A DNA stretch of 39,620 bases, taken from Deinococcales bacterium (GTDB lineage Bacteria > Deinococcota > Deinococci > Deinococcales > JAAFIG01). Numbering within the stretch: position 1 is the first letter of the stretch; every line of letters begins with the position of its first letter. Where the stretch lies: NCBI GenBank assembly GCA_043778225.1, contig JAYWGM010000019.1, forward strand, positions 1 to 39,620. Direction: 5' to 3'. Made by a program: the position numbers and the translations under genes. The notes below the pieces were generated by a model. That model made no database searches, was not told where the DNA came from, and saw nothing but the letters and a program-made list of their open reading frames with translations. Of the stretch, positions 2,627-14,494 are shown in pieces.

Positions 2627-2662
2627 CTTGGTGCTAGTTTAACTTAAATTGCCGTCCAAGCA

Positions 2663-3736
2663 TCATCCCAAAAAAGCCCGTTCGACAAACCAGTAGCCAC
2701 CTGCCAAAACCGCTACCGCCGAAGCCGCATATTGCACAGGAATGTTCCAGTGCAGCTTTTTAAGCCAAGTCAGCAGTAAAAATGCTGGAATTACCACCGA
2801 TAATTGCCCGATTTCCACGCCAGCGTTAAAGCCAAAAATCGCCAATGGCAAGTTACTACGAGGCACTTGCAGTTCTTGAAGAATCCCAGCAAAGCCCATG
2901 CCGTGCAGTAAGCCAAAGGCAAAAACCAGCAGCCAACGCCCACGCTCGAGTTTAGGGGCATCAAAGCGCCGCCAGATATTCTCGAGTGCCACCAAAGAAA
3001 TAGACAGGGCAATACCGCTTTCGATAATTTGGCTGGGCAACTGAATAATCCCTAAAGTGGTTAAGGCAATGGTGATTGAATGCGCCACCGTAAATGCCGT
3101 AATCACCTTGAGTAGATACACTAAATTGCCACCGAGTGCCAGTAAAGCCAATAAAAACAGCAAATGGTCATAGCCCGTTAAAATATGCTCGAACCCAAGT
3201 TGAATAAATCCAATCAGATTGACAGGCGCAGTTGCTTCATTACCAACCGCATACTCGAGGTTGTTGGGCGTAAAGACCACACTTTGGGCTTGGTCGTTGT
3301 GTTGAATCGTTGCCACACACGAAGCCGTCGAAACACCAGTCACAAATAAATTGTAAAAAACTTTATATTGGATTACAGGCGAATCAAATTGATAACTCAG
3401 TCGTAAAGTCGAATGGGTCTGGCTCGAGGTTTGTTTGTTGGTGCTTGGGGCAAAAGCCGACTCGAGGCTCAGTCGACCAGCTTGACCATCAGTCGTTATT
3501 TTAATTTTTTCGCCCAGTGTTTGCTCGAGTTTTGCTTGGTTGGCGGTCACTTCGCTAACCGAAAGTGAACCGTTTTTATCCGAGTCAGCAAAAGCCGTTA
3601 AACCCGTTGGGTAGGTCAGCACCATCTGCACTTGGTTGCCTTGGCTCGAGATTTCGGCAACCGATAAATCCGACCAGTGGGCGGTGGCAACAGAACTCAA
3701 AGCCACTAAACTCATCAAAAGATATTGCCATTTCAT
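2663..3736 (-). CDS. HupE/UreJ family membrane protein with N-terminal exported domain
   Basis: Signal peptide; GFEHILTGYDHLLFL, TAFTVAHSIT, FGLLHGMGFA, FNAGVEIGQ. Confidence 0.88.
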   Translation of the reverse strand: MKWQYLLMSLVALSSVATAHWSDLSVAEISSQGNQVQMVLTYPTGLTAFADSDKNGSLSVSEVTANQAKLEQTLGEKIKITTDGQAGRLSLESAFAPSTNKQTSSQTHSTLRLSYQFDSPVIQYKVFYNLFVTGVSTASCVATIQHNDQAQSVVFTPNNLEYAVGNEATAPVNLIGFIQLGFEHILTGYDHLLFLLALLALGGNLVYLLKVITAFTVAHSITIALTTLGIIQLPSQIIESGIALSISLVALENIWRRFDAPKLERGRWLLVFAFGLLHGMGFAGILQELQVPRSNLPLAIFGFNAGVEIGQLSVVIPAFLLLTWLKKLHWNIPVQYAASAVAVLAGGYWFVERAFLG

Positions 3737-4908
3737 TTGTCACCCTCCGTTGTGCAATTGGTTTTGGTGGTCTGACAGCGCAGTCGCACCGCCTCGAGAA
3801 CTGCTTTGGTTTCTGAGTCATGGCGAATTTGTAATTCTTGTTGTGCATTTTGATAGGCTTCGGGTAAATCCCTATTTTGACCGCGTTCAAGCAGGGCTTT
3901 GGCTAAATCTCGCTGATGCCCAAATGCACCTTGGCGCACCTCGAGCCGCAGTTGTGCAATCGCAGCTTGCCACAAGGCTGGAGCATTCTTTTGCTGGGTG
4001 GCAGTGCTGACTTGGGCTAAACCAAGTAAAGCGGCATGATCGTAAGTGCTGGGTGAGCCTTGGACACCACGCAAGTTACCAAACAGCAGTTCTGCTTTGC
4101 TAAAATTCTCATTTTGCAACTCGAGTTGTGCCAATTGCAGCAGCGCCAACGGATACTTAGGCGCAATTTGCAGCGACTGCTCGAGTAAAAGCTGACTTGT
4201 CTTGAGGTCGCCACGACGCAACCAGTAGCGCCCAAATAAGGCTCTGGTGCGTGCCGAAGCAAAAACATCATCGGCATCCTCGAGTTTTAGGGCTTGTAAA
4301 AAACTTTGCTCTGCTTGTTCTAAACGCCCTTGTGCCTCGAGAATCGTGGCGCGTAAAACCAAGACACCTAGGCTCGGGTTATTTTGCCCAATCGTATCGG
4401 CATCTTGCAGTGCCAAGTCCAAATCACCTCGAGCCAAATAAATGCTGCTGCGTAATGCCAACGCCCCTGCATGGCGCGGCTCGGATTGCAGCACTTTGGC
4501 AACAATCTTCAGCGCTGCCACAAAATCGTGTTTGGCTTGTAGCACTTCGGCAAGTACCAAGTGCGCCCCAGAATTATAAACTGGTAAAGCCGCTAAACTG
4601 CGCTGGGCTGCTTGTTCAGCCAAGACAAACCAAGCATTCTCGCCTGTCACTCTGGCTTTACTTAAATACACGCCAGCCAGCGCCACCAAATCTAAGCCAT
4701 CGTCTGGACGAGCATTGACTCGGGCTTGATAAAAAGCAATTTCACGGGCAAAAGCGGCTGTTCGGGTTCGCGCTCGAGTCTCGAGGCTATCAGGAAAGGG
4801 ATAGGCATAAGGCAGATTGCGTGGGGTCAACAAAAGCCACGCCACCAGACCCGTTAAAACGGCTGTGGCAAACAACCACCAATTTTGTGACACTTTGAAC
4901 TCGAGCAT
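3733..4908 (-). CDS. TPR-repeat protein with N-terminal membrane anchor
   Basis: Ala/Leu-rich helical repeats; usual partner in DUF4331-TPR-HupE operons. Confidence 0.8.
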   Translation of the reverse strand: MLEFKVSQNWWLFATAVLTGLVAWLLLTPRNLPYAYPFPDSLETRARTRTAAFAREIAFYQARVNARPDDGLDLVALAGVYLSKARVTGENAWFVLAEQAAQRSLAALPVYNSGAHLVLAEVLQAKHDFVAALKIVAKVLQSEPRHAGALALRSSIYLARGDLDLALQDADTIGQNNPSLGVLVLRATILEAQGRLEQAEQSFLQALKLEDADDVFASARTRALFGRYWLRRGDLKTSQLLLEQSLQIAPKYPLALLQLAQLELQNENFSKAELLFGNLRGVQGSPSTYDHAALLGLAQVSTATQQKNAPALWQAAIAQLRLEVRQGAFGHQRDLAKALLERGQNRDLPEAYQNAQQELQIRHDSETKAVLEAVRLRCQTTKTNCTTEGDK

Positions 4909-4930
4909 CGGCTACCCCTTTAGAGGAATT

Positions 4931-4957
4931 GCACCATCCCCAGAAAGAGGATGGTGC
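4931..4957 (-). other. Intergenic hairpin after the DUF4331 gene (stabiliser or weak terminator)
   Basis: gcaccatcc...ggatggtgc inverted repeat. Confidence 0.5.
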
Positions 4958-4963
4958 TTAAAA

Positions 4964-6184
4964 TCAGTTTCCTTCTGCCAAGAATGGGAATTCACCAAGC
5001 AAGGCTTTGTGCTTTGTGCCGCCAGCGTTTGGACCATCGTAAGAAACATTGTCCGAGGTTACACCGCCGTTTGAAAGTACGCTCAGGGTAATGTCAATCA
5101 CGTCGTCTTTAAGCATACGACCACGAATTGGGCTGCCTTTGGCATTGAGCGCGTTGCCGTAACCGCTTGTGCCTGTGGTATCAATTCGCATCACATCTGG
5201 CAAGAATGCCCCAAGCAATGCACCAACTCGCTTTTCGTCGTTGCCGAGTAAAGATAAAACCGTGCTGACTTCTTTGATAATTGGCGCAGCCGCTTCACCA
5301 GCCGCTTTATCACCATTTAGCACAGCCGCTTCAAAAGCTGGGTCAACCGCATTCAAAGTATTTAAGTAATCGTTGGTCAAAAGTAAACCTTCATTGACCG
5401 CAGGACGCGCCAAACGCTCAATTTGCATCCAGTCACCAGCTTTACTCGGGTTTGGCACAGAGACGGTTTCCCAAACATCAAAAGTGGTTGCGCCACTGCT
5501 CGAGACCAACCAACCCATTGGCATTCGGACAACAATCGAATTGACATTATAACCCGCCGTAAAATCTACGCCGGGGCTACGAAAACCGACTTTTTCGCCC
5601 AAGCCAGCCAAGCCAGCCCTGACTCTAAAGAACTGCTCGACATCAAAAAAGAACGGGTCTTCGCGCAGACCAGCAAAGACCGTAATTCCACCACCGGCGG
5701 TGTCTATCGGTACAAGGTTCATCATTGGGGCAGCGCCGAGCGGGGTGGTTAGGATTTCTTGTCCTGTGGCTGTGGTTTTAACGGTTCGTGTTGCACCATC
5801 ACGGATGCCAGTGACCGTCATGGCTTGCTGACCCTTGGCGTTGGGTTTGCCAAATTCAAAACGCACCAGCGCATCTATTTTGCCAGTCGCCATGCTGTCT
5901 TTGTCTCGAATTCGCGTAATCTTAAATTCATAGCGGGCATTGCTCGAGAAACTGTACTGCTGACGGGCAATACTGCGTGGGTTGGTGTTCATCACAAAAA
6001 CCAAGTTATCGTCCACAATTTTAGGGTTCTGGTCTTTCTCGCGGAAGACATAGAGGTCGGTGAGGTTTAGACTGCGGGCTTTCATATCGTTTTCGCCGTC
6101 GTCATGGTCGCTGGCTCGAGTGATGGCAAAAATTCCAAGGGCGACGGTCAGGATGGTCAGGACAAATTTGAGTGGGGTTTTCAT
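4964..6184 (-). CDS. DUF4331 family exported protein
   Basis: Signal peptide then ASDH; TDLYVF, FAGLREDPFFFD, QIERLARPAVN, GRMLKDDVID, FPFLA. Confidence 0.88.
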   Translation of the reverse strand: MKTPLKFVLTILTVALGIFAITRASDHDDGENDMKARSLNLTDLYVFREKDQNPKIVDDNLVFVMNTNPRSIARQQYSFSSNARYEFKITRIRDKDSMATGKIDALVRFEFGKPNAKGQQAMTVTGIRDGATRTVKTTATGQEILTTPLGAAPMMNLVPIDTAGGGITVFAGLREDPFFFDVEQFFRVRAGLAGLGEKVGFRSPGVDFTAGYNVNSIVVRMPMGWLVSSSGATTFDVWETVSVPNPSKAGDWMQIERLARPAVNEGLLLTNDYLNTLNAVDPAFEAAVLNGDKAAGEAAAPIIKEVSTVLSLLGNDEKRVGALLGAFLPDVMRIDTTGTSGYGNALNAKGSPIRGRMLKDDVIDITLSVLSNGGVTSDNVSYDGPNAGGTKHKALLGEFPFLAEGN

Positions 6185-6205
6185 GGTTTCTCCAATACAT
6201 AGGGG

Positions 6206-6250
6206 TTAAGGGCAATAAAAAGCCAGACACATCAAAATGTGCATTCGCAA
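6206..6250 (-). CDS. Putative 14-aa upstream ORF (MRMHILMCLAFYCP)
   Basis: Perfect SD AAGGAGGTGA (6258-6267) 7 nt before a TTG start; TAA at 6206-6208. Confidence 0.4.
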   Translation of the reverse strand: MRMHILMCLAFYCP

Positions 6251-6292
6251 AGGTAAATCACCTCCTTAGAACTGGGTTATTCCTATATAGTT

Positions 6293-6319
6293 TTACGCAC
6301 CAACTTTAGCAATTGGATG
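6293..6319 (-). promoter_or_regulatory. Putative ECF (SigK-like) promoter CATCC-N17-CGTAA
   Basis: Minus strand CATCC aattgctaaagttggtg CGTAA upstream of the DUF4331 operon. Confidence 0.45.
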
Positions 6320-6401
6320 TGGCAACTCAATCAGAATGTAATCGGGTTCGCAGACCAACAACCTAGGATTCGAGCAGGCAGATTCGCTGTTGGTCTTGCC
6401 G

Positions 6402-7163
6402 TTAAATCGCTGTCCAACCACCATCAACTGCTAAAGTATGTCCCGTCACAAAGCCAGCCGCGCTCGAGGCTAAAAAAACGCACGCACCAAGCATATCCTC
6501 GACTGTGGCAATTCGCCCAAGTGGAATACGGCGCTCAAGGTCAGCTTTTATTTCGGGCTGCGAAAAGGTTTGTTCGGTCAGTGGCGTAAGCACAAAAGTT
6601 GGCGCGATGGCATTGACCGTAATTCCATGCTTTGCCCACTCGAGCGCCAAAACTCGAGTCTGGTTAATTAACCCCGCTTTGGCACTGCAATACGCCGCCC
6701 GTTGATAATAGCCAATCAGCCCATTTTGCGAAGCGATGTTAATAATTCGCCCACCAAGTCCTCGAGCAATCATCCCTTGACCAATGGCTTGCGAAACAAA
6801 AAATGCACCTTTGAGGTTGGTGTCTACCACCAAATCCCAGTTTTCTTCGGTTACATCGGTCGCCCACTGCACCCGATTTACCCCAGCATTATTGACCAGA
6901 ATGTCTACATCTCCAGCTTCGAGTGCCAGATTTTTGCACTGTGCCACCGACTGGACATCGAGTGCCAAGGCTGTGGCTTTACGCCCAAAAGCGTGTACAA
7001 GCTCAAGCGTGGCTTGGGTGGTCTCGAGTTTATCTGGCAATTCAGTAATGATGATGTCTGCACCGTGGGCAGCCAATGCCACCGCAAAGCCCTGACCAAG
7101 CCCACCAGAAGCACCAGTCACTAGAGCAGTTTTACCGTACAAAGAAAAATTTGGAATGTTCAT
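6402..7163 (-). CDS. SDR family oxidoreductase (KduD/gluconate dehydrogenase-like)
   Basis: TGASGGLG, NNAG, YCSAK, VDGG; alternative GTG start at 7196. Confidence 0.9.
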   Translation of the reverse strand: MNIPNFSLYGKTALVTGASGGLGQGFAVALAAHGADIIITELPDKLETTQATLELVHAFGRKATALALDVQSVAQCKNLALEAGDVDILVNNAGVNRVQWATDVTEENWDLVVDTNLKGAFFVSQAIGQGMIARGLGGRIINIASQNGLIGYYQRAAYCSAKAGLINQTRVLALEWAKHGITVNAIAPTFVLTPLTEQTFSQPEIKADLERRIPLGRIATVEDMLGACVFLASSAAGFVTGHTLAVDGGWTAI

Positions 7164-7387
7164 AATTGGCAGTTTAACCGCAATTGCTTGTTTCACCTCG
7201 AGAACCTAATAGAACCCGTTTGACATCTCAGCTAAGGATTTGTCCGTGTTTGCGTTAAGATGCAGTTTTAATACCCTGAGGCTTGCCTCGGTGACTTTTT
7301 ATTCAAATTCCTAAGTATCTCCCGCCTACATTTTAGAATTTTCAAAAAGCGTCAATTCTGTCATTACGGCGGCAGATACGCTGTCCT

Positions 7388-7435
7388 TACTCCCGTTGGT
7401 CGGAAATGTTTTAGCAAAGAACTCTAAAACATTTC
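7388..7435. repeat. Small dispersed repeat module: TACTCCCGTTGGTCGG followed by a hairpin
   Basis: Identical 16-mer at 39564-39579; both copies are followed by an 11-12 bp stem. Confidence 0.6.
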
Positions 7436-7445
7436 GGGGTTGTAC

Positions 7446-9038
7446 TTAGAACTCGCCGCGTGCGAAGCTCGAGATGATGTTTGGTGCGCTGGTATCAAAG
7501 CCGCAAATGTCAAGCATTCCAGCGTCTTTTGGATCGGCAATGCTAAATTGCGTGGCGGTCATGCCCACCACCACCAGCCGTGCTGCAATGCCCATGGAAT
7601 CACGGTATCGGCGCAAGGCTTCAAAGGGGTGTACCTTACCAAAGTACGTTTCGTTATCGGTGTAAATCACGAATACATCGGCTTGTACGCCTTTCTCGAG
7701 CGCCCAGAGCATTGGTAAAGCACAATCTGTACCACCGAATGATTGGTTTTGAGTCTTCTTGAGTGCAGTCTCGAGAGAATCGCCTGCGCGGATTCCCACG
7801 TCGCGGAAAGTATCCGCAAAGCCCATGATGTGCGAATTCTTTTCGCTGCGAAGGGTGAGCATTGCCATGGCGGTGCTGGCAAGGTTTGGGGTGAGACCGT
7901 TTACGCCAGCGATGTTGCCCCATGTCATTGAACCTGAAATATCCAAGCCCAATACAAAGCGCTTGTTGGCAGGTGTAATCGTACCAAACGAAGTATAGAA
8001 CGCCTTCTCGAGCGCATCCACAATTTGTGATACGACTACCCAAGTACCATCGCCTTTGATGCTGCGTCCGCCTTTGTACACCAGCATGGCTTTTAGAGCA
8101 TCAATTGGATGGATTCGTCCTTTTCGCAAACTTTCGGCATCGGTGACTCGAGCAACAATTTGTCCAATCACATCCCATGCACCCGGCACAAGTACCTCGT
8201 GCTTGCCAAGATTGCCAAGGTTACGCAGTGTCCAAGTCAAACCGTTGTTCTCGAGTGCAGTGCGGTAGACTTTTTCACCTCGAGCTTCAGTGGGAATGGC
8301 TTCAATAGGCAACTTGTATTCGTGCATGATGGCGGCAGCACTCTTATCGGTTTTTGCCTCGAGCGCCAGGATATGACCACGCACCATGTTCAGCGCGGCA
8401 TCCTCAGACTCGAGAACACCATCCACAAGGTACTTGAACAACGCATTTCGGGTCGCGTCGCTGGTCTTTGGGTGCGAGAGGCGCAAAGCATCGGCTTGAG
8501 TCCAACCATCTCGAGACTTGTACTTGACAGCCCAGAGTGCCAGTTTCTCGAGTGGCATATGCTCGTAGATTTTTGCCACGCCGCTACGGGTCAGACGACC
8601 CCAACCGCCGAACAATTGTACAAACTCGAGGAAGTGCAACATATGCGTACCAGTTCGCGCCACTTCAGGCAGGGCATCCCAAGCTGCTTTACGAGTCGCA
8701 GAATCCACCGAGAGCTTCGCCACGGCTGCAAGTGCCACAAGAGTAGGCTCTGGCTTTGGAGCGCGGTTGTAACGTGCTACATCAAGAATAATCTCGAGGG
8801 CAGTAGCACCTTCAAGGGTCGCAAAATCGCGCACGAAATCGGTCTCGAGCTTGGTTTGACGCGCTTCGGTGGTGTAAAATGTACCACCCTCAGTTCCTAA
8901 AATTAAAAATCGGAGGAAACGAGTTGCATCCGAAACCGCGAAGACAAAACCGAGGGTGTTGTTTTGCACTTGGTCGGCTCGAGCCTTGAGAATTTGCGAG
9001 GTGCTATTTGGACGAATTGCATTGATAAGGTGCTTCAT
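7446..9038 (-). CDS. rsr: Ro60/Rsr RNA-binding protein (TROVE + vWA domains)
   Basis: Start MKHLINAI with SD GGAGGG; QVQNNTLGFVF, RFLILGTEGGTFY, KYKSRDGWTQADALRLSHP, DISGSM MIDAS motif, GGTDCALPM, YTDNET, GMLDICGFD. Confidence 0.95.
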   Translation of the reverse strand: MKHLINAIRPNSTSQILKARADQVQNNTLGFVFAVSDATRFLRFLILGTEGGTFYTTEARQTKLETDFVRDFATLEGATALEIILDVARYNRAPKPEPTLVALAAVAKLSVDSATRKAAWDALPEVARTGTHMLHFLEFVQLFGGWGRLTRSGVAKIYEHMPLEKLALWAVKYKSRDGWTQADALRLSHPKTSDATRNALFKYLVDGVLESEDAALNMVRGHILALEAKTDKSAAAIMHEYKLPIEAIPTEARGEKVYRTALENNGLTWTLRNLGNLGKHEVLVPGAWDVIGQIVARVTDAESLRKGRIHPIDALKAMLVYKGGRSIKGDGTWVVVSQIVDALEKAFYTSFGTITPANKRFVLGLDISGSMTWGNIAGVNGLTPNLASTAMAMLTLRSEKNSHIMGFADTFRDVGIRAGDSLETALKKTQNQSFGGTDCALPMLWALEKGVQADVFVIYTDNETYFGKVHPFEALRRYRDSMGIAARLVVVGMTATQFSIADPKDAGMLDICGFDTSAPNIISSFARGEF

Positions 9039-9102
9039 GATAGACCCTCCTGTAGGGTAAATTCGCAACTCGAGGCGCTGCTCGAGAAACAAGTAAAAAA
9101 AG

Positions 9103-9184
9103 GGGCATGGCTTGAAATCAAACCAATACAACGGCTCAAGCACGAAGAGGAAACACATGGTGCTTGTGTAAGAATTCCACGCCC
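9103..9184 (-). ncRNA. Y-RNA-like structured RNA without tRNA arms, followed by a U7 tract
   Basis: Terminal stem GGGCGTGG/CCATGCCC, internal stem CAAGCAC/GTGCTTG, contains the GAGCCG motif shared with the other Y-like RNAs; directly upstream of rsr. Confidence 0.45.
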
Positions 9185-9211
9185 ATAAAAACAACTCGAA
9201 TGCCAGTAATG

Positions 9212-9340
9212 TGGTGGAGCGAGTGGGATTTGCACCCACGTCCTGACGATTAGAAGTCGATAACCCTCACGCTTCGGCTCTATAAAGAACAAGGTGTGCA
9301 AAAGGATGTTTTATCCGCTCTACTCCTGAGCTACCGCCCC
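9212..9340 (-). ncRNA. Y RNA (YrlA-related), tRNA-framed or circularly permuted form with CCA end
   Basis: Acceptor GGGGCGG/TCGCTCC-A-CCA, D arm GCTC/GAGC, T arm GTGGG-TGCAAAT-CCCAC; 54-nt insert with Ro helix CTTGTTCT-ttat-AGAGC(C)GAAG. Confidence 0.8.
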
Positions 9341-9352
9341 ACGAAAAAATGT

Positions 9353-9476
9353 TGGAACAGGAGGGAATCGAACCCCCGACCTCCCCTGAGTAGAGGTAAT
9401 CCTCGAGCGACGGCTCAGAAAAAAGCAAAAAATGCTGAGGAATTTTTTTGGCGCTCTACCACTGAGCTACTGTTCC
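9353..9476 (-). ncRNA. Y RNA (YrlA-related), tRNA-framed form, second copy
   Basis: Acceptor GGAACAG/CTGTTCC-A, D arm GCTC-AGTGGTA-GAGC, T arm GGGGG-TTCGATT-CCCTC; insert carries TTGCTT...GAGCCGTCGCTCGAGGATTACC. Confidence 0.75.
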
Positions 9477-9483
9477 ATAAAAA

Positions 9484-9705
9484 TCAAAACTCGAGTTGAA
9501 ACGTACTACCCGCATTTGCATTAGCGTTCTTGACTCGTTTAATCAATTCAGATAAACGCATTGAAACCGCCATTGAAAATACTTGATGCTCCTCACCAGA
9601 GGCTTCTCGAGCAACCGAAACAGGCACACCAGAAATAACGAGCGTCACACCCGTTTTGGTGGTGTAGGTATAATTAATTCTGGTTTCTGGAGCAATCACA
9701 ATCAA
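9484..9705 (-). CDS. Small protein resembling a YgiT/MqsA-type zinc-finger antitoxin domain, but without Cys
   Basis: YTY..G.TLVISGVPVSV...GE..VFS..V..RL pattern; GTGA/TTGA-type overlap with the upstream ORF. Confidence 0.5.
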   Translation of the reverse strand: MIVIAPETRINYTYTTKTGVTLVISGVPVSVAREASGEEHQVFSMAVSMRLSELIKRVKNANANAGSTFQLEF

Positions 9706-9905
9706 GCCGCTTGATTCTTAGGCATGGTTGCAATTAACGCCCTAAGTACAGCATTAACTTGTTCAGGCGTAGCAAAAACTTGTGCCACATCAGGCTCGAG
9801 CAGCACAACTCGAGAACCACTTGGAATACTTGTGAAACGATTTGGTTTGGCTTGACTATAATCAAAAATATACTCTGGTCTTAATTCATCCAAGGTGTTT
9901 GGCAT
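9702..9905 (-). CDS. BrnA-like/CopG-type antitoxin-like small protein (start MPNTLDEL)
   Basis: ELRPEYIFDYSQAKPNRF...VLLEPDVAQVF.TPEQVNAVLR pattern; the longer ORF would overlap tRNA-Ser. Confidence 0.6.
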   Translation of the reverse strand: MPNTLDELRPEYIFDYSQAKPNRFTSIPSGSRVVLLEPDVAQVFATPEQVNAVLRALIATMPKNQAA

Positions 9906-9936
9906 GACGCAAATTCTAGCGCTTTTAGAGATTAAA

Positions 9937-10019
9937 AGGAATCGGAGGGATTTGAACCCTCGAGACATCAGTCTTCCTTCTTAGCAGGAAGGTGCAATAA
10001 GCCACTCTGCCACGATTCC
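9937..10019 (-). tRNA. tRNA-Ser(GCT)
   Basis: GGAATCG/CGATTCC acceptor, CCTTC-CTGCTAA-GAAGG, long variable arm, TTCAAAT loop; no encoded CCA. Confidence 0.9.
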
Positions 10020-10045
10020 ATAAGGCTCGAGAAAACCTCGAGCTT

Positions 10046-10123
10046 TGGCGTGCCTGACAGGATTTGAACCTGCAACGATACGTGTTGGAGACGTACTCCC
10101 TTAGCCAGTCGGGATTCAGACAC
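10046..10123 (-). tRNA. tRNA-Trp(CCA)
   Basis: GTGTCTG/CAGGCAC-G-CCA, TACGT-CTCCAAC-ACGTA. Confidence 0.88.
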
Positions 10124-10127
10124 AAAA

Positions 10128-10210
10128 AGGAAAGCAAGGGAATCGAACCCTTGAGGCTTTTACGCCCAGCCGTTTTCAAAACGGTGTCCTCGACCCACCG
10201 GACGCTTTCC
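10128..10210 (-). tRNA. tRNA-Ser(TGA), atypical D region
   Basis: GGAAAGC/GCTTTCC, CCGT-TTTGAAA-ACGG, long variable arm, AAGGG-TTCGATT-CCCTT. Confidence 0.8.
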
Positions 10211-10215
10211 ATAAA

Positions 10216-10285
10216 AGACCTCGCTCGGAATTGAACCGAGACTCCTTGGTTTGCAGCCAAAGCCCATGCCGTCTGGCTCGAGATC
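10216..10285 (-). tRNA. tRNA-Cys(GCA)
   Basis: GATCTCG/CGAGGTC with U73, TTTGG-CTGCAAA-CCAAG. Confidence 0.85.
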
Positions 10286-10300
10286 AAAATTTGATATATT

Positions 10301-11191
10301 TTAGAATGGAGGAAGTCCATCAATTCTATCCAGTTCCATTCCTGAAAAACTTTCAAATATAAACCATGCGTCATTTTTGGCAATCAATCGAAATTTAAAT
10401 TGATTGCCAGAGTATCCGCTTTGGGTTCTTATATCTTGAATTATAGAAGAAAAGTTATCATATGCTTCTTGTTGTAAACCACCTAAAAATCGCCCATAAT
10501 GGTCATGTATTTGAAGAGCCTTCATGCTATTTCCTGCTGTGGCATAACCACCACCTGGAGGCATCAAAACTGTCCCATCAGAAAGTTCAACAAATATTGT
10601 CATACCCGCTTTTCGTGCTTGTGTAAAGTGACGTGGCTCTATAAGTTTTGGGAAAACATTTTCAAAAGGTGTTTTAAACCGATCAAAAAGCTCAGACCAA
10701 TTAGAGTAGGCAATCTCGAGCAAATCTCTTTCTCCCCACACGGTTGGATGACTTCTGCCATGTGAACGAACGTCAATGCAATAAATCGTATCTTGGTCAA
10801 CCATACAAAATAAAATTTCTTGCGTTCCTGATTCCGTAAAGTGTAAATGATGTATACCCCAATCAAACAGTATTGGGTCATACTTTTCAGTATCCATAAT
10901 TGAACGACTTTGGTGTGACATTAAATTTTCGCCACGCCCAGATTTTTCTTGCAGTAATTGCAAGTCATTTTGATGTTGGCTTGGACAGGTAAATTCTTTA
11001 GCGTAGACAAACCTACGCGGGGCAATTGGAATTTTTCGTATCTCAGCGTTAAAATACTGGAGTGCTATTTTTTGAGGATCAGTGGCAGCAGAAATACTAT
11101 ATCCTTGGGCTACTAATAACATACCCAAATAAGCTGCCCAATCTTCGTAGAAACTGATTTCCAAGTCAATGCCGTCTATGGTTGTTTTCAT
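10301..11191 (-). CDS. Hypothetical 296-aa protein, AT-rich, possible RelE/YafQ-like ribonuclease core
   Basis: Long ORF inside the tRNA array; DWGIHHLHF...EILFCMVDQDTIYCIDVRSH; function is inference only. Confidence 0.7.
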   Translation of the reverse strand: MKTTIDGIDLEISFYEDWAAYLGMLLVAQGYSISAATDPQKIALQYFNAEIRKIPIAPRRFVYAKEFTCPSQHQNDLQLLQEKSGRGENLMSHQSRSIMDTEKYDPILFDWGIHHLHFTESGTQEILFCMVDQDTIYCIDVRSHGRSHPTVWGERDLLEIAYSNWSELFDRFKTPFENVFPKLIEPRHFTQARKAGMTIFVELSDGTVLMPPGGGYATAGNSMKALQIHDHYGRFLGGLQQEAYDNFSSIIQDIRTQSGYSGNQFKFRLIAKNDAWFIFESFSGMELDRIDGLPPF

Positions 11192-11268
11192 TCCAAATCA
11201 TTTTACTTTATGGTTTTAATTTTTGTACATGACAACTTTAGAATGTAAGAAATTTTTAGGTTGATATA

Positions 11269-11479
11269 TGGAGGAGGCGGGACTCGAACCCGCATATTCG
11301 GCACTGTCGGTTTTAGGAAACCCGCTTCCTGCGGCAAGTTACAAACCCACTCAAGATTCGTCATCTCGAGTCGCCAGCCAGTGCATCCGGAACCTCCGAC
11401 GGTTTTTGACCTGTGCCGCAGCTATTACGCTTACCGAATCCGTAGTTTTGCGGTGCGCGACCGTTTGCGCTACTCCCCC
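11269..11479 (-). ncRNA. 211-nt tRNA-framed structured RNA with a large pseudoknotted insert in the variable-arm position
   Basis: Acceptor GGGGGAG/CTCCTCC-A, D arm GCGC/GCGC, T arm GCGGG-TTCGAGT-CCCGC; nested stems ATTCGGTA/TGCCGAAT and CTGCGGCA/TGCCGCAG. Confidence 0.75.
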
Positions 11480-11482
11480 ATG

Positions 11483-11560
11483 TGGTGTTCCTTCAGGGAC
11501 TCGAACCCAGACTTGTCAGTGTTTTAAGCACTGCGCCTCTACCAATTGGGCTAAAGAAAC
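11483..11560 (-). tRNA. tRNA-Leu(TAA), short variable arm
   Basis: GTTTCTT/AAGGAAC-A-CCA, CAGTG-CTTAAAA-CACTG. Confidence 0.85.
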
Positions 11561-11561
11561 A

Positions 11562-11637
11562 TGGTGCGAATTACGAGAGTCGAACTCGTGTTTCCTGCAT
11601 GGCAAGCAGATGTCGTAAACCACTGGACGAAATTCGC
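11562..11637 (-). tRNA. tRNA-Gly(GCC)
   Basis: GCGAATT/AATTCGC-A-CCA, TCTGC-TTGCCAT-GCAGG. Confidence 0.9.
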
Positions 11638-11639
11638 AT

Positions 11640-11715
11640 TGGTGCGTCTGGTAGGAGTCGAACCTACAGATTCTCGGGTTTGAACCGAGCGAGTTTGCCA
11701 TTCCTCTACAAACGC
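11640..11715 (-). tRNA. tRNA-Leu(CAA), short variable arm
   Basis: GCGTTTG/CAGACGC-A-CCA, CTCGG-TTCAAAC-CCGAG. Confidence 0.88.
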
Positions 11716-11745
11716 ATGATTCTCGAGGAAATTCCCGAGAATTTT

Positions 11746-11821
11746 TGGTACGCCGAGCGGGACTCGAACCCGCAAGCTCCTCGTTCTAAGCGAGGTGAGT
11801 TTACCATTTCTCTATCAGCGC
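11746..11821 (-). tRNA. tRNA-Leu(TAG), short variable arm
   Basis: GCGCTGA/TCGGCGT-A-CCA, CCTCG-CTTAGAA-CGAGG. Confidence 0.9.
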
Positions 11822-11846
11822 ATAGACCCTCGAGACTCGAGGGTTA

Positions 11847-11924
11847 TGGTTTCCAAGGTCAGGATTTGAACCCGTAAATTCTTGTCGCTCAAACAAGTGA
11901 CTTTACCAATTTGTCTACACGGAT
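11847..11924 (-). tRNA. tRNA-Leu(GAG), degenerate (mismatched acceptor and T stems; possible pseudogene)
   Basis: CTTGT-TTGAGCG-ACAAG anticodon arm, TTCAAAT loop, ACCA end; acceptor ATCCGTG/CTTGGAA has 2 mismatches. Confidence 0.65.
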
Positions 11925-11926
11925 AA

Positions 11927-11986
11927 GCTGGTGCAGGTTTCCCATGCGGGTGCTGGTGCAGGTTTCCCATGCGGGTGCTGGTGCAG
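11927..11986. repeat. 25-nt tandem repeat (2.4 copies) duplicating the 3' end (CTGCACCA) of tRNA-Gly(TCC)
   Basis: gctggtgcaggtttcccatgcgggt at 11927 and 11952, partial at 11977. Confidence 0.9.
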
Positions 11987-12054
11987 TTGGCGGGAATCGA
12001 ACCCGCATTCTCTGTTTGGAAGACAGCCATCCTAAGCCGTTGGATGACAACTGC
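11979..12054 (-). tRNA. tRNA-Gly(TCC)
   Basis: GCAGTTG/CAACTGC-A-CCA, CTGT-CTTCCAA-ACAG. Confidence 0.9.
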
Positions 12055-12060
12055 ATAAAG

Positions 12061-12132
12061 CCCTTATTCATGTGGCACAACATAAAGCGGTGTGTGCCAT
12101 TTGCTCCCGCTCGAGCAAATGCAAAATAAGGG
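12061..12132 (-). ncRNA. Putative three-way-junction structured RNA in an array spacer
   Basis: Closing stem CCCTTATT/AATAAGGG enclosing ATTTGCTC/GAGCAAAT and TGGCACA/TGTGCCA. Confidence 0.4.
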
Positions 12133-12157
12133 TGGTGACCCCACGTTGTGCGGGGTT

Positions 12158-12232
12158 TGGAGCAGAAGGACAGGTTTCGCACCTGCGTCTCACCTCGGTT
12201 GAGGTGCATCTTGCTGTTTAGAAGACTTCTGC
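12158..12232 (-). tRNA. Aberrant tRNA-like gene with no canonical anticodon loop
   Basis: Perfect acceptor GCAGAAG/CTTCTGC-T-CCA, T arm GCAGG-TGCGAAA-CCTGT, anticodon arm CACCTC-AACC-GAGGTG. Confidence 0.6.
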
Positions 12233-12233
12233 A

Positions 12234-12309
12234 TGGTGGGTTCTCTCGAATTTGAATCGAGACCTCGACGATTAAAAGTCGTCTGCTCTGCCAGTTGAGC
12301 TAAAAACCC
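12234..12309 (-). tRNA. tRNA-Lys(TTT)
   Basis: GGGTTTT/AGAACCC-A-CCA, GACGA-CTTTTAA-TCGTC. Confidence 0.92.
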
Positions 12310-12334
12310 ATGTGGGGCTGATTAAACCCCATTT

Positions 12335-12410
12335 TGGTGATCTCGAGGAGAATTGAACTCCTGTCTGTCGGGTGAAAACCGCCTATCCTAAACCATTAGA
12401 CGACGAGACC
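12335..12410 (-). tRNA. tRNA-Glu(TTC)
   Basis: GGTCTCG/CGAGATC-A-CCA, CGG-TTTTCAC-CCG. Confidence 0.85.
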
Positions 12411-12413
12411 ATG

Positions 12414-12488
12414 TGGAAGGAAAGTTGGGATTTGAACCCAAAATAACAGCTTCAAAGGCTGTTGAGTTGCCAGTTACTCCACTTTCCT
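12414..12488 (-). tRNA. tRNA-Gln(TTG)
   Basis: AGGAAAG/CTTTCCT-T-CCA, ACAGC-CTTTGAA-GCTGT. Confidence 0.88.
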
Positions 12489-12495
12489 ATTTTGG

Positions 12496-12611
12496 ACTCG
12501 AGCAAGGTTTGTAGCACAGTAAAAAACGACTCGAGAATACCTCGAGTTTACAGGATTTGAACCTGTTCTCCTTTGGGGATTTACCGATAACTGTGTTACT
12601 TCGGCTCGAGC
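12496..12611 (-). ncRNA. Y RNA, YrlA-like topology (Ro stem ends, T arm, loop-closed acceptor-like stem, no D arm)
   Basis: 5' GCTCGAGC(C)GAAG pairs with 3' CTTGCTCGAGT; internal CAGG-TTCAAAT-CCTG and ACTCGAG-GTATT-CTCGAGT. Confidence 0.75.
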
Positions 12612-12617
12612 AAAAAC

Positions 12618-12693
12618 TGGTCGAGAGACTTGGAATTGAACCAAGACTTACTGTGCTTCAGACAATCGTGCAGACCAACTACACCATCTCTCG
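12618..12693 (-). tRNA. tRNA-Phe(GAA)
   Basis: CGAGAGA/TCTCTCG-A-CCA, ATTGT-CTGAAGC-ACAGT. Confidence 0.88.
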
Positions 12694-12696
12694 TTT

Positions 12697-12769
12697 TGGG
12701 TGCGGTGATGGGAGTTGAACCCATCAATCGAGCTTATGAGACTCGAGGCATCACCGGACGCACACCGCA
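12697..12769 (-). tRNA. tRNA with CAT anticodon (Met; subtype not determinable)
   Basis: TGCGGTG/CACCGCA-C-CCA, CGAGT-CTCATAA-GCTCG, reduced D arm. Confidence 0.8.
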
Positions 12770-12776
12770 TTAAAAC

Positions 12777-12850
12777 TGGTCGAAGATGATGGAATCGAAC
12801 CATCGTTGCCTGCATATCAGACAGGTGTCTTACCTTTAGACGAATCTTCG
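12777..12850 (-). tRNA. tRNA-Ile(GAT)
   Basis: CGAAGAT/ATCTTCG-A-CCA, CCTGT-CTGATAT-GCAGG. Confidence 0.9.
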
Positions 12851-12905
12851 TTTCTCCTCGAGTTGTTTGGAGGTAATTCTCGAGGGGTGCGTTTATAAAA
12901 CGCTC

Positions 12906-12981
12906 TGGTCGGCACGGCAAGGGTCGAACTTGCGGCTTCTGCTTTGTAAGAGCAGCACTCATACCACTGAGTTACGCGCCG
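12906..12981 (-). tRNA. tRNA-Val(TAC)
   Basis: CGGCGCG/CGTGCCG-A-CCA, CTGCT-CTTACAA-AGCAG. Confidence 0.9.
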
Positions 12982-13019
12982 TTAAACTCGAGGCGGTCAA
13001 GCGCCGTACTCTCGAGCAT

Positions 13020-13094
13020 TGGTGGAAATGATCGGATTTGAACCGATAACCTTCGCTGTGCAAAAGCGCTGCTCTCCCGTTGAGCTACAATCCC
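13020..13094 (-). tRNA. tRNA-Ala(TGC)
   Basis: GGGATTG/CATTTCC-A-CCA with G3:U70, CGCT-TTTGCAC-AGCG. Confidence 0.88.
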
Positions 13095-13117
13095 ATGTTG
13101 GGAACGGGTGTTCCCTT

Positions 13118-13194
13118 TGGTCGAGCGTGTAAGAATTGAACTTACCTAATGTCCTGTTTCCAAAACAGGAGACCCTCCTTGAGTCTGACGCTCG
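13118..13194 (-). tRNA. tRNA-Pro(TGG)
   Basis: CGAGCGT/ACGCTCG-A-CCA, CCTGT-TTTGGAA-ACAGG. Confidence 0.85.
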
Positions 13195-13199
13195 AGATA

Positions 13200-13273
13200 A
13201 GATTCGGATAGGAATTGAACCTATGACCTTTGGCTTCGCATACCAATGCTCGTTTCCACTGAGCTACCGAATC
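13200..13273 (-). tRNA. tRNA-Arg(GCG)
   Basis: GATTCGG/CCGAATC, TTGGT-ATGCGAA-GCCAA, no encoded CCA. Confidence 0.8.
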
Positions 13274-13287
13274 AAGTGATAGTGCTG

Positions 13288-13364
13288 TGGTGAACCGAGC
13301 AGGACTTGAACCTGCGACTTCCATGTTAGAAGCATGGCACTCTACTCCACTGAGTTATCGGTTC
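13288..13364 (-). tRNA. tRNA-Arg(TCT)
   Basis: GAACCGA/TCGGTTC-A-CCA, CCATG-CTTCTAA-CATGG. Confidence 0.92.
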
Positions 13365-13392
13365 GTGAAACCCATGTATTCACTGGTTCATG

Positions 13393-13468
13393 TGGTGAAT
13401 CGGGCAGGACTCGAACCTGCAACTTCCACGTTCGAAGCGTGGCACTCTGTCCTTTGAGTTACCGATTC
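13393..13468 (-). tRNA. tRNA-Arg(TCG)
   Basis: GAATCGG/CCGATTC-A-CCA, CCACG-CTTCGAA-CGTGG. Confidence 0.92.
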
Positions 13469-13474
13469 ATGATG

Positions 13475-13535
13475 CTCGAGCAAGTGAGTACAGCACGACA
13501 ATATTTTCAAGATAATCGTGTTGCTTCGGCTCGAG
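13475..13535 (-). ncRNA. Minimal Y RNA (Ro-binding hairpin only, ~61 nt)
   Basis: CTCGAGC(C)GAAG...CACGATTATC...GTCGTG...CACTTGCTCGAG. Confidence 0.75.
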
Positions 13536-13541
13536 ATGGGT

Positions 13542-13612
13542 ACTGCAAACAAGTGGATTCTTGAGGCGTTTTAATCTGGGAAAGAGATAAGCCTCGAGAT
13601 TCGGCTCGCAGT
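13542..13612 (-). ncRNA. Minimal Y RNA (Ro-binding hairpin only, ~71 nt)
   Basis: ACTGCGAGC(C)GAA-TCTCGAGGC-TTATC...GCCTCAAGA...CACTTGTTTGCAGT. Confidence 0.75.
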
Positions 13613-13616
13613 TATA

Positions 13617-13691
13617 TGGCGGTTCTAACGGGAATCGAACCCGTATTGCCTGAGAGACAGTCAAGCATCGTAGCCGTTGGAACATAGAACC
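13617..13691 (-). tRNA. tRNA-Asp(GTC)
   Basis: GGTTCTA/TAGAACC-G-CCA, CTTGA-CTGTCTC-TCAGG. Confidence 0.88.
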
Positions 13692-13717
13692 ATTTCATGG
13701 TGTCAAACACAGACCTA

Positions 13718-13792
13718 TGGCTGACTCGGTAGGGATCGAACCTACGACATCCTGATTAACAGTCAGGCGCTCTACCTCTAAGCTACAAGTCA
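13718..13792 (-). tRNA. tRNA-Asn(GTT)
   Basis: TGACTTG/CGAGTCA-G-CCA, CCTGA-CTGTTAA-TCAGG. Confidence 0.92.
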
Positions 13793-13796
13793 AAAC

Positions 13797-13880
13797 TGGT
13801 GGATAGAGAGGGATTTGAACCCCCAGTGTTTTTCAACGTCTGATCTACAGTCAGGTGCAATACCATTATGCGATCTACCC
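13797..13880 (-). tRNA. tRNA-Tyr(GTA)
   Basis: GGGTAGA/TCTATCC-A-CCA, CTGA-CTGTAGA-TCAG, long variable arm. Confidence 0.9.
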
Positions 13881-14096
13881 TTAATTTGCTCGAGAGTTGT
13901 ACGCCCCTGAGCGTGTTCGCCTCAAGAATAATCGTGATGCGCCGCACAGCACATAAATTCACGTTTTCTTGAAGAAGAAAAATTTGGCATTCGAGTTGTC
14001 AAAGTATACGCTCGAGAACGAGTTCTAGTCGTCGCAAGCAGTTTGGGTGCATTTTTAGCTTCTCGAGGACACGAATTCTCGAGTTGCGTACACCTG

Positions 14097-14172
14097 TGGG
14101 TTCATCGTCGGGAATCGCACCCGAGTTTCTAGGGTCACAACCTAGCGTCTTGTCTACTGGACGACAACGAAC
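14097..14172 (-). tRNA. tRNA-His(GTG)
   Basis: G-1:C73, TTCGTTG/CGATGAA, CTAGG-TTGTGAC-CCTAG, CCA. Confidence 0.9.
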
Positions 14173-14188
14173 ATAATTTGTGCGGTAC

Positions 14189-14225
14189 AAAAAATTTGAG
14201 CCTATCCATTGCGGTTAGGCTCAAA
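14189..14225 (-). terminator. Intrinsic terminator/attenuator 16 nt before the first tRNA
   Basis: TTTGAGCCTA-(11 nt)-TAGGCTCAAA followed by TTTTTT. Confidence 0.85.
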
Positions 14226-14244
14226 AGAGTATGCCTGTTCCGCC

Positions 14245-14406
14245 TTACCTAATACGATTTTCCAAAATACTCGAGAAGCTACGACCTTGCCAATTGCCCT
14301 GTCCTAAATCTGAGTGATAACCGAGGTTACGCAATTTCAGATTGGCACAATCGCTTGCCCGACTCGGGCGTGTGGCGTATTGTTTTGTGGGGTTTATAAA
14401 GTTCAT
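14245..14406 (-). CDS. Putative 53-aa leader peptide MNFINPTKQYATRPSRASDCANLKLRNLGYHSDLGQGNWQGRSFSSILENRIR
   Basis: SD GGAG 6 nt before ATG (14406); TAA at 14245-14247, 19 nt before the terminator; not in the supplied ORF track (below its length cut-off). Confidence 0.7.
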   Translation of the reverse strand: MNFINPTKQYATRPSRASDCANLKLRNLGYHSDLGQGNWQGRSFSSILENRIR

Positions 14407-14465
14407 AAATTTCTCCGATTCGAGGTCTTTGGTCTCGAGGGTCAGGTGTTGTTTCCTCGAGCAGC

Positions 14466-14494
14466 ATCGTACCGAGCCGTTTGGGTCTTGTCAT
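14466..14494 (-). promoter_or_regulatory. Putative sigma70-type promoter for the tRNA/Y RNA/rsr unit
   Basis: ATGACA (14494-14489)-N17-TACGAT (14471-14466). Confidence 0.55.

Follow-up and report, generated by a model that had tools for sequence, protein, structure and literature searches.

A minus-strand array of supernumerary tRNA genes, Y RNAs and tRNA-framed RNAs ending in rsr: a candidate gated RNA operon in a Deinococcales bacterium

The stretch of DNA analyzed here, referred to as the window, is an entire contig of 39.6 kb (39,620 nucleotides [nt]; JAYWGM010000019.1) from a 4.03-Mb assembly of a Deinococcales bacterium that is 89% complete; its guanine-plus-cytosine (G+C) content is ∼49%. 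The window contains an array of transfer RNA (tRNA) genes and other RNA elements, all co-oriented on the minus strand, and the unit ends in rsr, the gene for an orthologue of Ro60. The best explanation of the unit as a whole, to which we assign a probability of about 0.55, is that it is an enlarged version of the Y RNA/tRNA/rsr locus of Deinococcus that acts as a single RNA operon, gated by a leader open reading frame (ORF) and a terminator, for use when translation or RNA integrity is failing. The unit is probably transcribed as one polycistronic operon. Its principal features, from the promoter-like site to rsr, are as follows.

14466-14494, minus strand: promoter-like site (ATGACA, 17 nt, TACGAT; 9 of 12 in a consensus scan)
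14245-14406, minus strand: leader ORF of 53 codons with a GGAG ribosome-binding site, present at the same place in relatives
14188-14225, minus strand: hairpin (14195-14225) plus T-run resembling an intrinsic terminator, from an alignment of five loci
9937-14171, minus strand: array of 26 tRNA genes, His first and Ser-gct last, with non-tRNA elements between them (ARAGORN, Rfam)
13544-13610, minus strand: predicted Y RNA with a variant handle, TGCGAGC...GTTTGCA, and CGAAU (28.4 bits with covariance model R1, filters off)
13475-13535, minus strand: predicted Y RNA of the short hairpin type (R1, 74.7 bits; seed member)
12497-12610, minus strand: predicted Y RNA with an internal T-arm-like hairpin (R1, 67.4 bits; seed member)
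11269-11482, minus strand: giant (∼215-nt) tRNA-framed RNA (alignment, fold and covariation)
9353-9476, minus strand: E1, a tRNA-framed element whose anticodon position is occupied by a branched insert and whose Y-like strand, CCGUCG, is diverged (Rfam tRNA model, 50.4 bits over 124 nt; fold)
9212-9342, minus strand: E2, a tRNA-framed element in which a loop-closed Ro-type helix takes the anticodon position and the acceptor carries G3:U70, A73 and CCA (fold and comparison)
9039-9190, minus strand: E3, a third tRNA-framed Y-like element (sequence comparison)
7446-9038, minus strand: rsr, encoding a Ro60 orthologue of 530 amino acids (Pfam domains and alignment with Deinococcus radiodurans Rsr)

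ARAGORN predicted 26 tRNA genes, from tRNA-His (14097-14171) to tRNA-Ser-gct (9937-10019), which together serve 19 amino acids, with Thr absent. An initial annotation, made from the letters of the window, had counted 27 tRNAs for 19 amino acids, all on the minus strand; the strand and the amino acid coverage agreed with ARAGORN, and the 27th tRNA was probably the tRNA-like element of 124 nt at 9353-9476 (minus strand). A search of the window with the Rfam tRNA model gave 24 matches above the gathering score, corresponding to 23 of the 26 ARAGORN genes and this same element, while Ser-tga, Met and Pro-tgg fell under the score (Met reached 31.5 bits in the genome-wide search). The whole genome gave 68 Rfam tRNA matches. 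Because 42 other tRNA genes outside the array cover all 20 amino acids, and because a relative assembled as a single contig (G025) has 71 tRNA matches, 25 of them inside its array, the array is a supernumerary set and not the housekeeping one, as the initial annotation had assumed. The genome also has a transfer-messenger RNA (tmRNA) outside the array. Arrays of ∼20 or more co-oriented, closely spaced tRNA genes beyond a complete housekeeping set are classed as long arrays (L-arrays), and the array in the window has these properties.

The array tRNAs were only 53 to 74% identical to the best housekeeping isoacceptor, and the anticodon loops of several of them differ from the housekeeping loops at positions 37 to 38. 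Their anticodons mostly carry U34 or G34, forming a compact decoding set. CCA is encoded in 21 of the 26 array tRNAs compared with 41 of the 42 tRNAs outside the array. Four Leu tRNAs (UAA, CAA, UAG and GAG; 11483-11923, minus strand) lack the long variable arm and have a class-I length of 73 to 78 nt, as against 82 to 87 nt for the housekeeping Leu tRNAs; the short length is retained in relatives.

The identity of the protein at the end of the unit was established from the ORF at 7446-9239, which matched the Ro60 vWA domain (PF25045; E value, 3.9e-65) and TROVE (PF05731; E value, 1.2e-18) in Pfam. The product aligned with D. radiodurans Rsr (2nvo_A; E value, 1.9e-201) over residues 1 to 529 of 530 and has, at full length, the TROVE HEAT-repeat ring followed by a vWA domain that defines Ro60/Rsr. 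Since this alignment runs from end to end, the start of rsr was placed at the ATG at 9038, which lies behind GGAGG and is the likely start codon in preference to the GTG at 9239. These results upheld the earlier statement that the unit ends in rsr.

The spacers of the array contain repeated copies of GAGCCGAAG...GUUAUC...ACUUGCUC, which fit the Ro-binding motif GNCGAAN0-1G defined by Chen et al. in 2014 (PMC4201824). The palindrome CTCGAG is hugely over-represented in the window, with 256 sites where 5.8 would be expected, distributed over both genes and spacers (for example, at 49-54 and 186-191); it is an iterated palindrome similar to HIP1 in the Deinococcales lineage and makes up the handle of most Y RNAs in the window's genus. 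As CTCGAG is over-represented genome-wide, stems composed of it prove nothing alone, and a covariance model, R1, was therefore built in this analysis from nine copies in five loci and run on 17 loci around rsr. At E values of up to 5e-4, 36 matches were obtained, all 36 of them upstream of rsr and on the rsr strand, and a search of 12 further loci placed 10 of 10 matches in the same position and orientation. In the alignment of the 36 sequences, which was fitted to the model and so favors structure, 12 of 17 pairs were changed on both sides; in this model-fitted alignment, 96.7% of the cells were paired, compared with 74.5% in shuffles and 34 to 41% when the partner was slid. The pair next to the bulge was invariant and was followed by G:U and A:U. 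In distant genomes the handle lacks CTCGAG yet is still paired, as in AGUGAGC with GCUCACU, and it covaries there.

When R1 was run on the window with filters off, three elements were detected at 74.7, 67.4 and 28.4 bits, the rest being a CTCGAG background at ∼12 bits. Over the whole genome only the two strongest matches passed, and both are within the array. All three elements are predicted to have the canonical form of a Y RNA, in which the ends make a stem with a bulged CGAA helix, next to rsr and on the same strand; their handle may closely resemble that of vertebrate Y RNAs. The upper stem of the element at 13475-13535 covaries with the copies in two related loci (L002 and L004), the element at 13544-13610 has homologues in the same two loci, and the element at 12497-12610 contains, at 12550-12566, a match to positions 47 to 63 of the Rfam tRNA model. 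The Rfam Y_RNA model (RF00019) had no match in the window at E values of up to 10, and YrlA (RF02553) did not exceed 25 bits, its threshold being 69, so that the assignment as Y RNAs rests on R1. The check with ARAGORN and Rfam that had been proposed for this DNA thus confirmed the tRNAs and left the two Y RNA models below threshold.

After the last tRNA and before rsr are three further elements, E1 to E3, in which the acceptor stem, D arm and T arm are those of an ordinary tRNA and a long insert replaces the anticodon arm. The acceptor stem of E1 covaries in L001 and L003. In E2, the D arm is followed by the 3′-strand motif CACCUUG, a short loop, the 5′-strand motif (GAGCCGAAG then GGGUUAUC), a small hairpin, the T arm, and the 3′ strand of the acceptor with ACCA; an unconstrained fold yielded the closed Ro-type helix, and a weak match (20 bits) to the Rfam model of the tmRNA end was present at 9212-9266. 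E3 is degenerate in the window's genome and better preserved in L002, L003 and L004. The motifs were retained in seven copies, belonging to two subtypes, from five loci, and 6 of 22 predicted pairs were changed on both sides, in acceptor stems and T arms. The topology of YrlA, with a permuted T arm, a closed acceptor and the D arm within the Y stem, was not found in E1 to E3, in which the order is D arm, insert, T arm and open acceptor. A YrlA match at 9317-9381 (25 bits; all YrlA matches were at 19 to 25 bits against the threshold of 69) runs from the T arm of E1 into the D arm of E2 and was rejected as an artefact of a dimeric tRNA, a source of false positives for YrlA of which Chen et al. 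warned (PMC4201824). Together with the three canonical elements detected by R1, the three tRNA-framed Y-like elements account for the approximately six interleaved Y RNAs of the initial annotation.

The giant tRNA-like RNA that had been suspected within the array was located at 11269-11482, where it is conserved and has compensatory changes. It consists of a 7-bp acceptor with G3:U70 and A73, a D arm, a branched insert of ∼140 nt and a T arm with GGUUCGAGUCC. Full-length copies were present at seven array loci, representing three genera, and 10 of the family's 19 genomes had one; long stretches were invariant between genera whose Rsr proteins share only 65 to 69% identity. A long-range helix encloses three hairpins, and four of its pairs were changed on both sides in L002 (4 of 66 pairs in four sequences). 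G3:U70 and A73 were found in six copies, L008 being the exception, and also in E2. As a background, G3:U70 occurred in 5 of the 62 CCA-ending tRNAs of the genome, namely, three tRNA-Ala, tRNA-His (by the offset of its extra 5′ G) and the array tRNA-Tyr. This tRNA-Tyr (13797-13880, minus strand) is the only tRNA in the genome, besides those for Ala and His, to combine G3:U70 with A73, the alanine identity pair. The 215-nt RNA has the features of the alanine-type tRNA-like domain of tmRNA (G3:U70, A73 and a T arm). An identification as tmRNA itself was rejected: ARAGORN called no tmRNA in the window, and a normal tmRNA is encoded elsewhere in the genome. A tag-peptide frame was also rejected, as judged by eye, with open frames in the insert not being kept between genera and all codon positions being conserved. 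An exact search with a 20-mer from the core of this RNA hit no viral contig and two metagenome contigs; neither of the latter contains the RNA or a tRNA, and both matches are due to chance.

A promoter, a leader ORF and a terminator had been claimed to precede the first tRNA, and this layout proved to be conserved in six loci of the family and similar in two of another family. In all five loci with upstream sequence (the window, L002, L006, L007 and L008), which represent three genera, the order of promoter, ribosome-binding site, ORF and hairpin was the same. The leader ORF has 50 to 57 codons and a ribosome-binding site at the same place in L002, L006, L007 and L008. All five aligned loci have a hairpin and T-run (about −16 to −24 kcal/mol; ∼−16 kcal/mol in the window), with stems that differ between genera yet still pair; in the window the T-run ends 17 nt before tRNA-His. 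A partly palindromic block just upstream of the −35 element was conserved in the five-locus alignment. In a wider survey of nine loci, L022 (a fourth genus) had the same layout with an ORF of 65 to 68 codons, and L009 and L010, from another family, had an ORF of 41 to 45 codons and a strong hairpin before tRNA-His; L013 and L014 had no hairpin, and in L021, L023, L016 and L011 the tRNA taken as first was not the start of the array. This combination is the anatomy expected of an attenuator, and the region is accordingly designated here as a candidate gate. The leader peptide matched no family in Pfam, PADLOC, PHROGs or NCBIfam. The peptides of the five loci use 19, 18, 20, 20 and 20 kinds of amino acid (P = 0.39, 0.60, 0.07, 0.04 and 0.13 against ORFs of shuffled nucleotides); because the loci are related, this weakly unusual diversity is only a hint. 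The signature of the Anabaena repressor TrcR, tandem 9-nt direct repeats as partly printed in the source, was absent from the array promoter; the one match in the window, at 1075-1094, compares with 0.91 expected by chance.

The distribution of the unit was examined among relatives. A sample of 201 genomes of the order Deinococcales included 33 with Rsr. In the window's family (low-G+C Deinococcales), complete loci had 20 to 29 tRNAs per array, and the unit was present in at least five genera; one further family locus was cut by a contig end. Arrays terminated by rsr were found at eight loci (the window, L001 to L004 and L006 to L008), with the same tRNA order across genera, and the array tRNAs were 64 to 92% identical to those in arrays of other genera. 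At least one co-oriented tRNA (1 to 29) lay just upstream of rsr in 19 of 24 loci outside the window's genus, and R1 matched in 19 of these 24 rsr loci. Outside the long-array family, clusters of 1 to 14 tRNAs preceded rsr in 16 of 21 loci. Because smaller clusters of tRNAs and Y RNAs precede rsr in other Deinococcales, the window can be placed at the large end of a graded series and the arrangement of D. radiodurans at the small end. A comparison of sequences gave no signal that the array tRNAs descend from the small clusters linked to rsr in other families: 13 of 24 comparable tRNAs were closer to those clusters than to the housekeeping tRNAs and 11 were not.

These observations suggest how the unit might work. 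The promoter, the translated leader ORF and the intrinsic terminator would form a gate on entry to the array, and read-through would produce a long precursor. From this precursor, 26 extra tRNAs, hairpin Y RNAs and tRNA-framed RNAs would be released and matured by RNase P, RNase Z and the CCA-adding enzyme, and rsr would be translated from the 3′ end of the precursor. The products would provide a second, sequence-divergent decoding set together with Ro60-Y RNA particles that handle damaged or misfolded RNA. Their synthesis would be expected under conditions that impair translation or RNA integrity, with expression tied to the behavior of ribosomes by the leader ORF and terminator. The anatomy of the unit, its conservation, the covariation in its RNAs and the supernumerary status of its tRNAs are matters of observation; from them we infer co-transcription, processing, binding by Rsr and, above all, the inducing signal. 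The hypothesis of the initial annotation, that stalled ribosomes would switch on a normally silent unit, belongs with the last of these.

Several results weigh against this explanation. A conserved antiterminator was not found among the five aligned loci, an upstream partner for the 5′ arm of the terminator exceeding shuffles in duplex energy in 1 of 5. The distance from the leader stop codon to the hairpin stem, 19 to 28 nt, is long for simple occlusion by a ribosome. Promoter-like sites inside the array numbered 11 against 7.9 ± 2.9 expected, i.e., chance level; one of them, at 11200-11229, precedes a gene inserted in the array (10301-11191) that may supply the distal tRNAs and rsr with a separate promoter, and several terminator-like sites also lie within the array. 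Some of the tRNAs are noncanonical, including the four Leu tRNAs of class-I length, the Pro and Ser-tga tRNAs below the Rfam threshold and the 5 of 26 without CCA. The arrays of L021 and L022 are followed by other genes, and Rsr was not found in those genomes with the query used, so that the array does not strictly need rsr; L022 retains one strong Y RNA despite having no rsr after its array. Finally, the known inducer in D. radiodurans is UV or radiation and not translation stress (PMC4201824).

The array also holds protein genes and structured elements of other kinds.

13881-14096, minus strand: conserved structured spacer between tRNA-His and tRNA-Tyr, unclassified (five-locus alignment and consensus fold)
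12158-12232, minus strand: tRNA-like element with a stem-tetraloop replacing the anticodon loop and an encoded CCA (fold)
12061-12132, minus strand: unclassified element of two hairpins enclosed by a stem that covaries (folds of the copies in the window, L002 and L004)
10301-11191, minus strand: inserted gene of 296 amino acids and low G+C content, similar to PD-T4-7 and a candidate for anti-phage defense (PADLOC PDLC04066; 8e-31)
9484-9905, minus strand: two small ORFs of 67 and 73 amino acids between the last tRNA and the tRNA-framed RNAs (tblastn)

In the spacer at 13881-14096, 9 of 29 consensus pairs were changed on both sides among the five loci, and a near-invariant block with CGAA was identical in three of the five; the window search with R1 gave no match there. 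The element at 12158-12232, which ARAGORN missed, is kept in L002 and L004. It directly follows tRNA-Lys in the window, and in relatives its homologue is preceded by tRNA-Thr and tRNA-Gly(tcc). A 25-nt unit is tandemly duplicated at 11924-11978 (minus strand), between tRNA-Gly-tcc and tRNA-Leu-gag. Elsewhere in the genome and away from rsr (C28:45855-46151, minus strand), there are three tandem tRNA-like elements of 85 to 106 nt with enlarged anticodon or variable regions. The PD-T4-7-like gene was not at the corresponding site in L001 and L002. The two small ORFs at 9484-9905 are conserved in L001, L003 and L004 by tblastn and matched no family in Pfam, PADLOC, PHROGs or NCBIfam; neither they nor the PD-T4-7-like gene featured in the initial annotation. 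The spacer cargo of relatives is variable and mostly on the opposite strand (L001:1537-2568, L002:6207-6680, L004:2622-2897, L004:5064-5570 and L006:2292-2789); the kinds encountered in related arrays were a beta-lactamase-fold protein, a GNAT acetyltransferase, a ParE toxin, an HNH-like ORF and a HEAT-repeat protein common to two genera. Outside the unit, a PIN-domain ORF, possibly a VapC-type RNase toxin, lies near the contig end (699-1115, minus strand).

A possible if doubtful alternative is that the unit is a mobile module derived from phages or plasmids and employed in RNA conflicts, in which divergent tRNAs would stand in for host tRNAs that anticodon nucleases or toxins had cleaved, Ro60 and Y RNAs would carry out clearance or repair, and control might be unrelated to ribosome stalling. 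This alternative overlaps the favored explanation in the roles of the products and differs from it in origin and trigger. The genes flanking the unit vary by species, and none of the five flanking proteins in the window was found beside the unit in 17 loci, including L002 with 10 kb on each side. Because flanking genes are not shared between species, the term "resident" that the initial annotation applied to the set is doubtful. Mobility is also favored by the low identity of the array tRNAs to housekeeping tRNAs, by the differences at positions 37 to 38 of the anticodon loops and by the cargo of a PD-T4-7-like gene, a ParE toxin and an HNH-like ORF. A catalogued viral contig of 55.8 kb (L020) carries 21 co-oriented tRNA genes (2025-7947) directly before an Rsr homologue of 40% identity (8001-9563), and the Rsr of the window matches a phage family, phrog_850, in PHROGs. 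Ro/TROVE proteins have been found in some jumbo phages (PMC7824862), and tRNA arrays have been discussed as anti-defense systems (PMC12803027). Against this, R1 detected no Y RNA on the viral contig, and blastn of 2.7 kb of the array against plasmid (17 records) and phage (99 records) collections gave only single-tRNA matches. At least five genera of a single family have retained the unit, and the order of its tRNAs is the same in them. The 36 ORFs of the window that were scanned against Pfam included no integrase, transposase, phage (structural families included) or RtcB family, in agreement with what had been noted from the sequence, and the 35 other than rsr were ordinary chromosomal genes, with metabolic neighbors such as class II ribonucleotide reductase and FabZ-like, LpxA-like and HisA/F-like proteins.

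It is unlikely that the unit is simply constitutive or, as in D. radiodurans, responsive to DNA damage or desiccation, with the hairpin ending a small upstream gene or serving as a leaky insulator and the tRNAs being present mainly since Y RNAs use tRNA processing. The UV induction of the Y RNAs and rsr in D. radiodurans (PMC4201824) and the small tRNA clusters before rsr outside the long-array family are in line with such an arrangement, as is the failure to find an antiterminator, and the palindromic block upstream of the −35 element could be the site of a regulator. However, another promoter could not be accommodated in the 17 nt from the T-run to tRNA-His, the ORF and terminator are found in the same relative arrangement in several genera despite sequence divergence, and a full second decoding set exceeds the needs of Y RNA processing.

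A further proposal, which we consider improbable, is a spare translation kit gated by translation itself. A leader using 18 to 20 of the 20 amino acids would report any shortage of or damage to tRNAs through stalling and so open the terminator; the E2-type and 215-nt RNAs, which bear the alanine identity elements (G3:U70, A73 and CCA), would undergo maturation and alanylation as tmRNA does and would serve as adaptors that recruit Ro60 to stalled ribosomes or to tRNA-handling enzymes. If this were true, the alanylated E2-type RNAs would represent Y RNAs of a new, chargeable class. That the unit is a decaying, nonfunctional relic is scarcely credible: the array lacks tRNA-Thr, has a degenerate E3 and includes some tRNAs with low scores as well as an inserted gene, but the order and sequences of the tRNAs are conserved in other genera, the Y RNAs, the 215-nt RNA and the terminator show covariation, and the anticodon set still reads 19 amino acids.

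The initial annotation had not recognized the combination as described. As regards the scale of the array, the gate, the Y RNAs of tRNA topology and the 215-nt RNA this appears to be correct, whereas co-transcription of Y RNAs and a tRNA before rsr and the presence of TROVE genes by tRNA clusters have been published (PMC4201824 and PMC6333295). A full-text literature search, with two Y RNA reviews outside its reach, found no description of Y RNAs interleaved in a long tRNA array. We could likewise find no description of an array of this scale before rsr, of a conserved leader-ORF/terminator gate, of Y RNAs in a normal tRNA topology or of a 215-nt RNA with an alanine-type acceptor. The unit, if correctly interpreted as a gated RNA operon, would join two separate lines of work, that on cryptic long tRNA arrays, with a role known from one cyanobacterium, and that on bacterial Ro60-Y RNA particles, with a tRNA mimicry that is unexplained. 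It would also provide a testable idea, that Ro60 particles and spare tRNAs are produced together to cope with damaged translation. Because Rfam gives no Y RNA match at threshold, a standard annotation would list the tRNAs and rsr only and miss every other RNA.

To our knowledge, the rsr-yrlBA-rtcBA operon of Salmonella is without tRNA genes. This RNA-repair operon, which has been tied to tRNA damage (PMC7790460), resembles the locus in the window in having rsr and Y RNAs in one unit and differs from it in that RtcR, RtcB and RtcA are not part of the window locus. RtcB is encoded on another contig of the same genome (C80:47009-49219, plus strand), with RtcB matches in three pieces within one open frame of 947 amino acids, which suggests an intein or other insertion in rtcB. 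In archaea, 20 of 29 tRNA clusters contain a TROVE gene (Morgado and Vicente 2019, PMC6333295), so that a TROVE/Ro60 gene beside a large tRNA cluster is a shared feature; these clusters are from a different domain of life and come from surveys of gene content that, in the part available, make no mention of Y RNAs, a leader or terminator, or tRNA-framed RNAs. As in YrlA (RF02553), a Ro-binding motif, a D arm, a T arm and an acceptor-like stem are combined in E2. In YrlA, however, both ends of the RNA fall in the Ro-binding stem, the acceptor is closed by a loop and the order is T, acceptor and D (PMC4201824), whereas E2 ends in a normal open acceptor with ACCA, has a loop-closed Ro-type helix and follows the order D, Y helix and T.

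The long array of Anabaena sp. PCC 7120, which is silent and is induced by translation inhibitors (PMC8421152), is similar in having more than 20 co-oriented supernumerary tRNAs, embedded protein genes, a sporadic distribution among relatives and a proposed back-up function in translational stress. Its repressor, TrcR (PMC10272220), acts through direct repeats located at the promoter, a mode of control that differs from the gate proposed here. The words Rsr, Y RNA, TROVE, leader and attenuator are absent from the main text of that report, and the available part of its supplement has a chance "RSR" string only, with no Rsr, Y RNA or TROVE; in its survey, Deinococcus-Thermus is among the phyla with accretive arrays only and no long arrays (PMC8421152). 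A close counterpart is the rsr locus of D. radiodurans (Chen et al. 2000 and 2014), in which Yrn2, tRNA-Asp and Yrn1 form one UV-induced precursor upstream of rsr (PMC4201824); additional small RNAs lie between Yrn1 and rsr. A leader ORF/terminator, tRNA-framed Y RNAs and a 215-nt RNA are not described for that locus in the part of the paper available. Both loci come from the order Deinococcales, with Y RNAs upstream of rsr on the same strand, both strands of the Ro helix kept and tRNA embedded among them, and where D. radiodurans has 1 tRNA, the window has 26, a near-complete decoding set.

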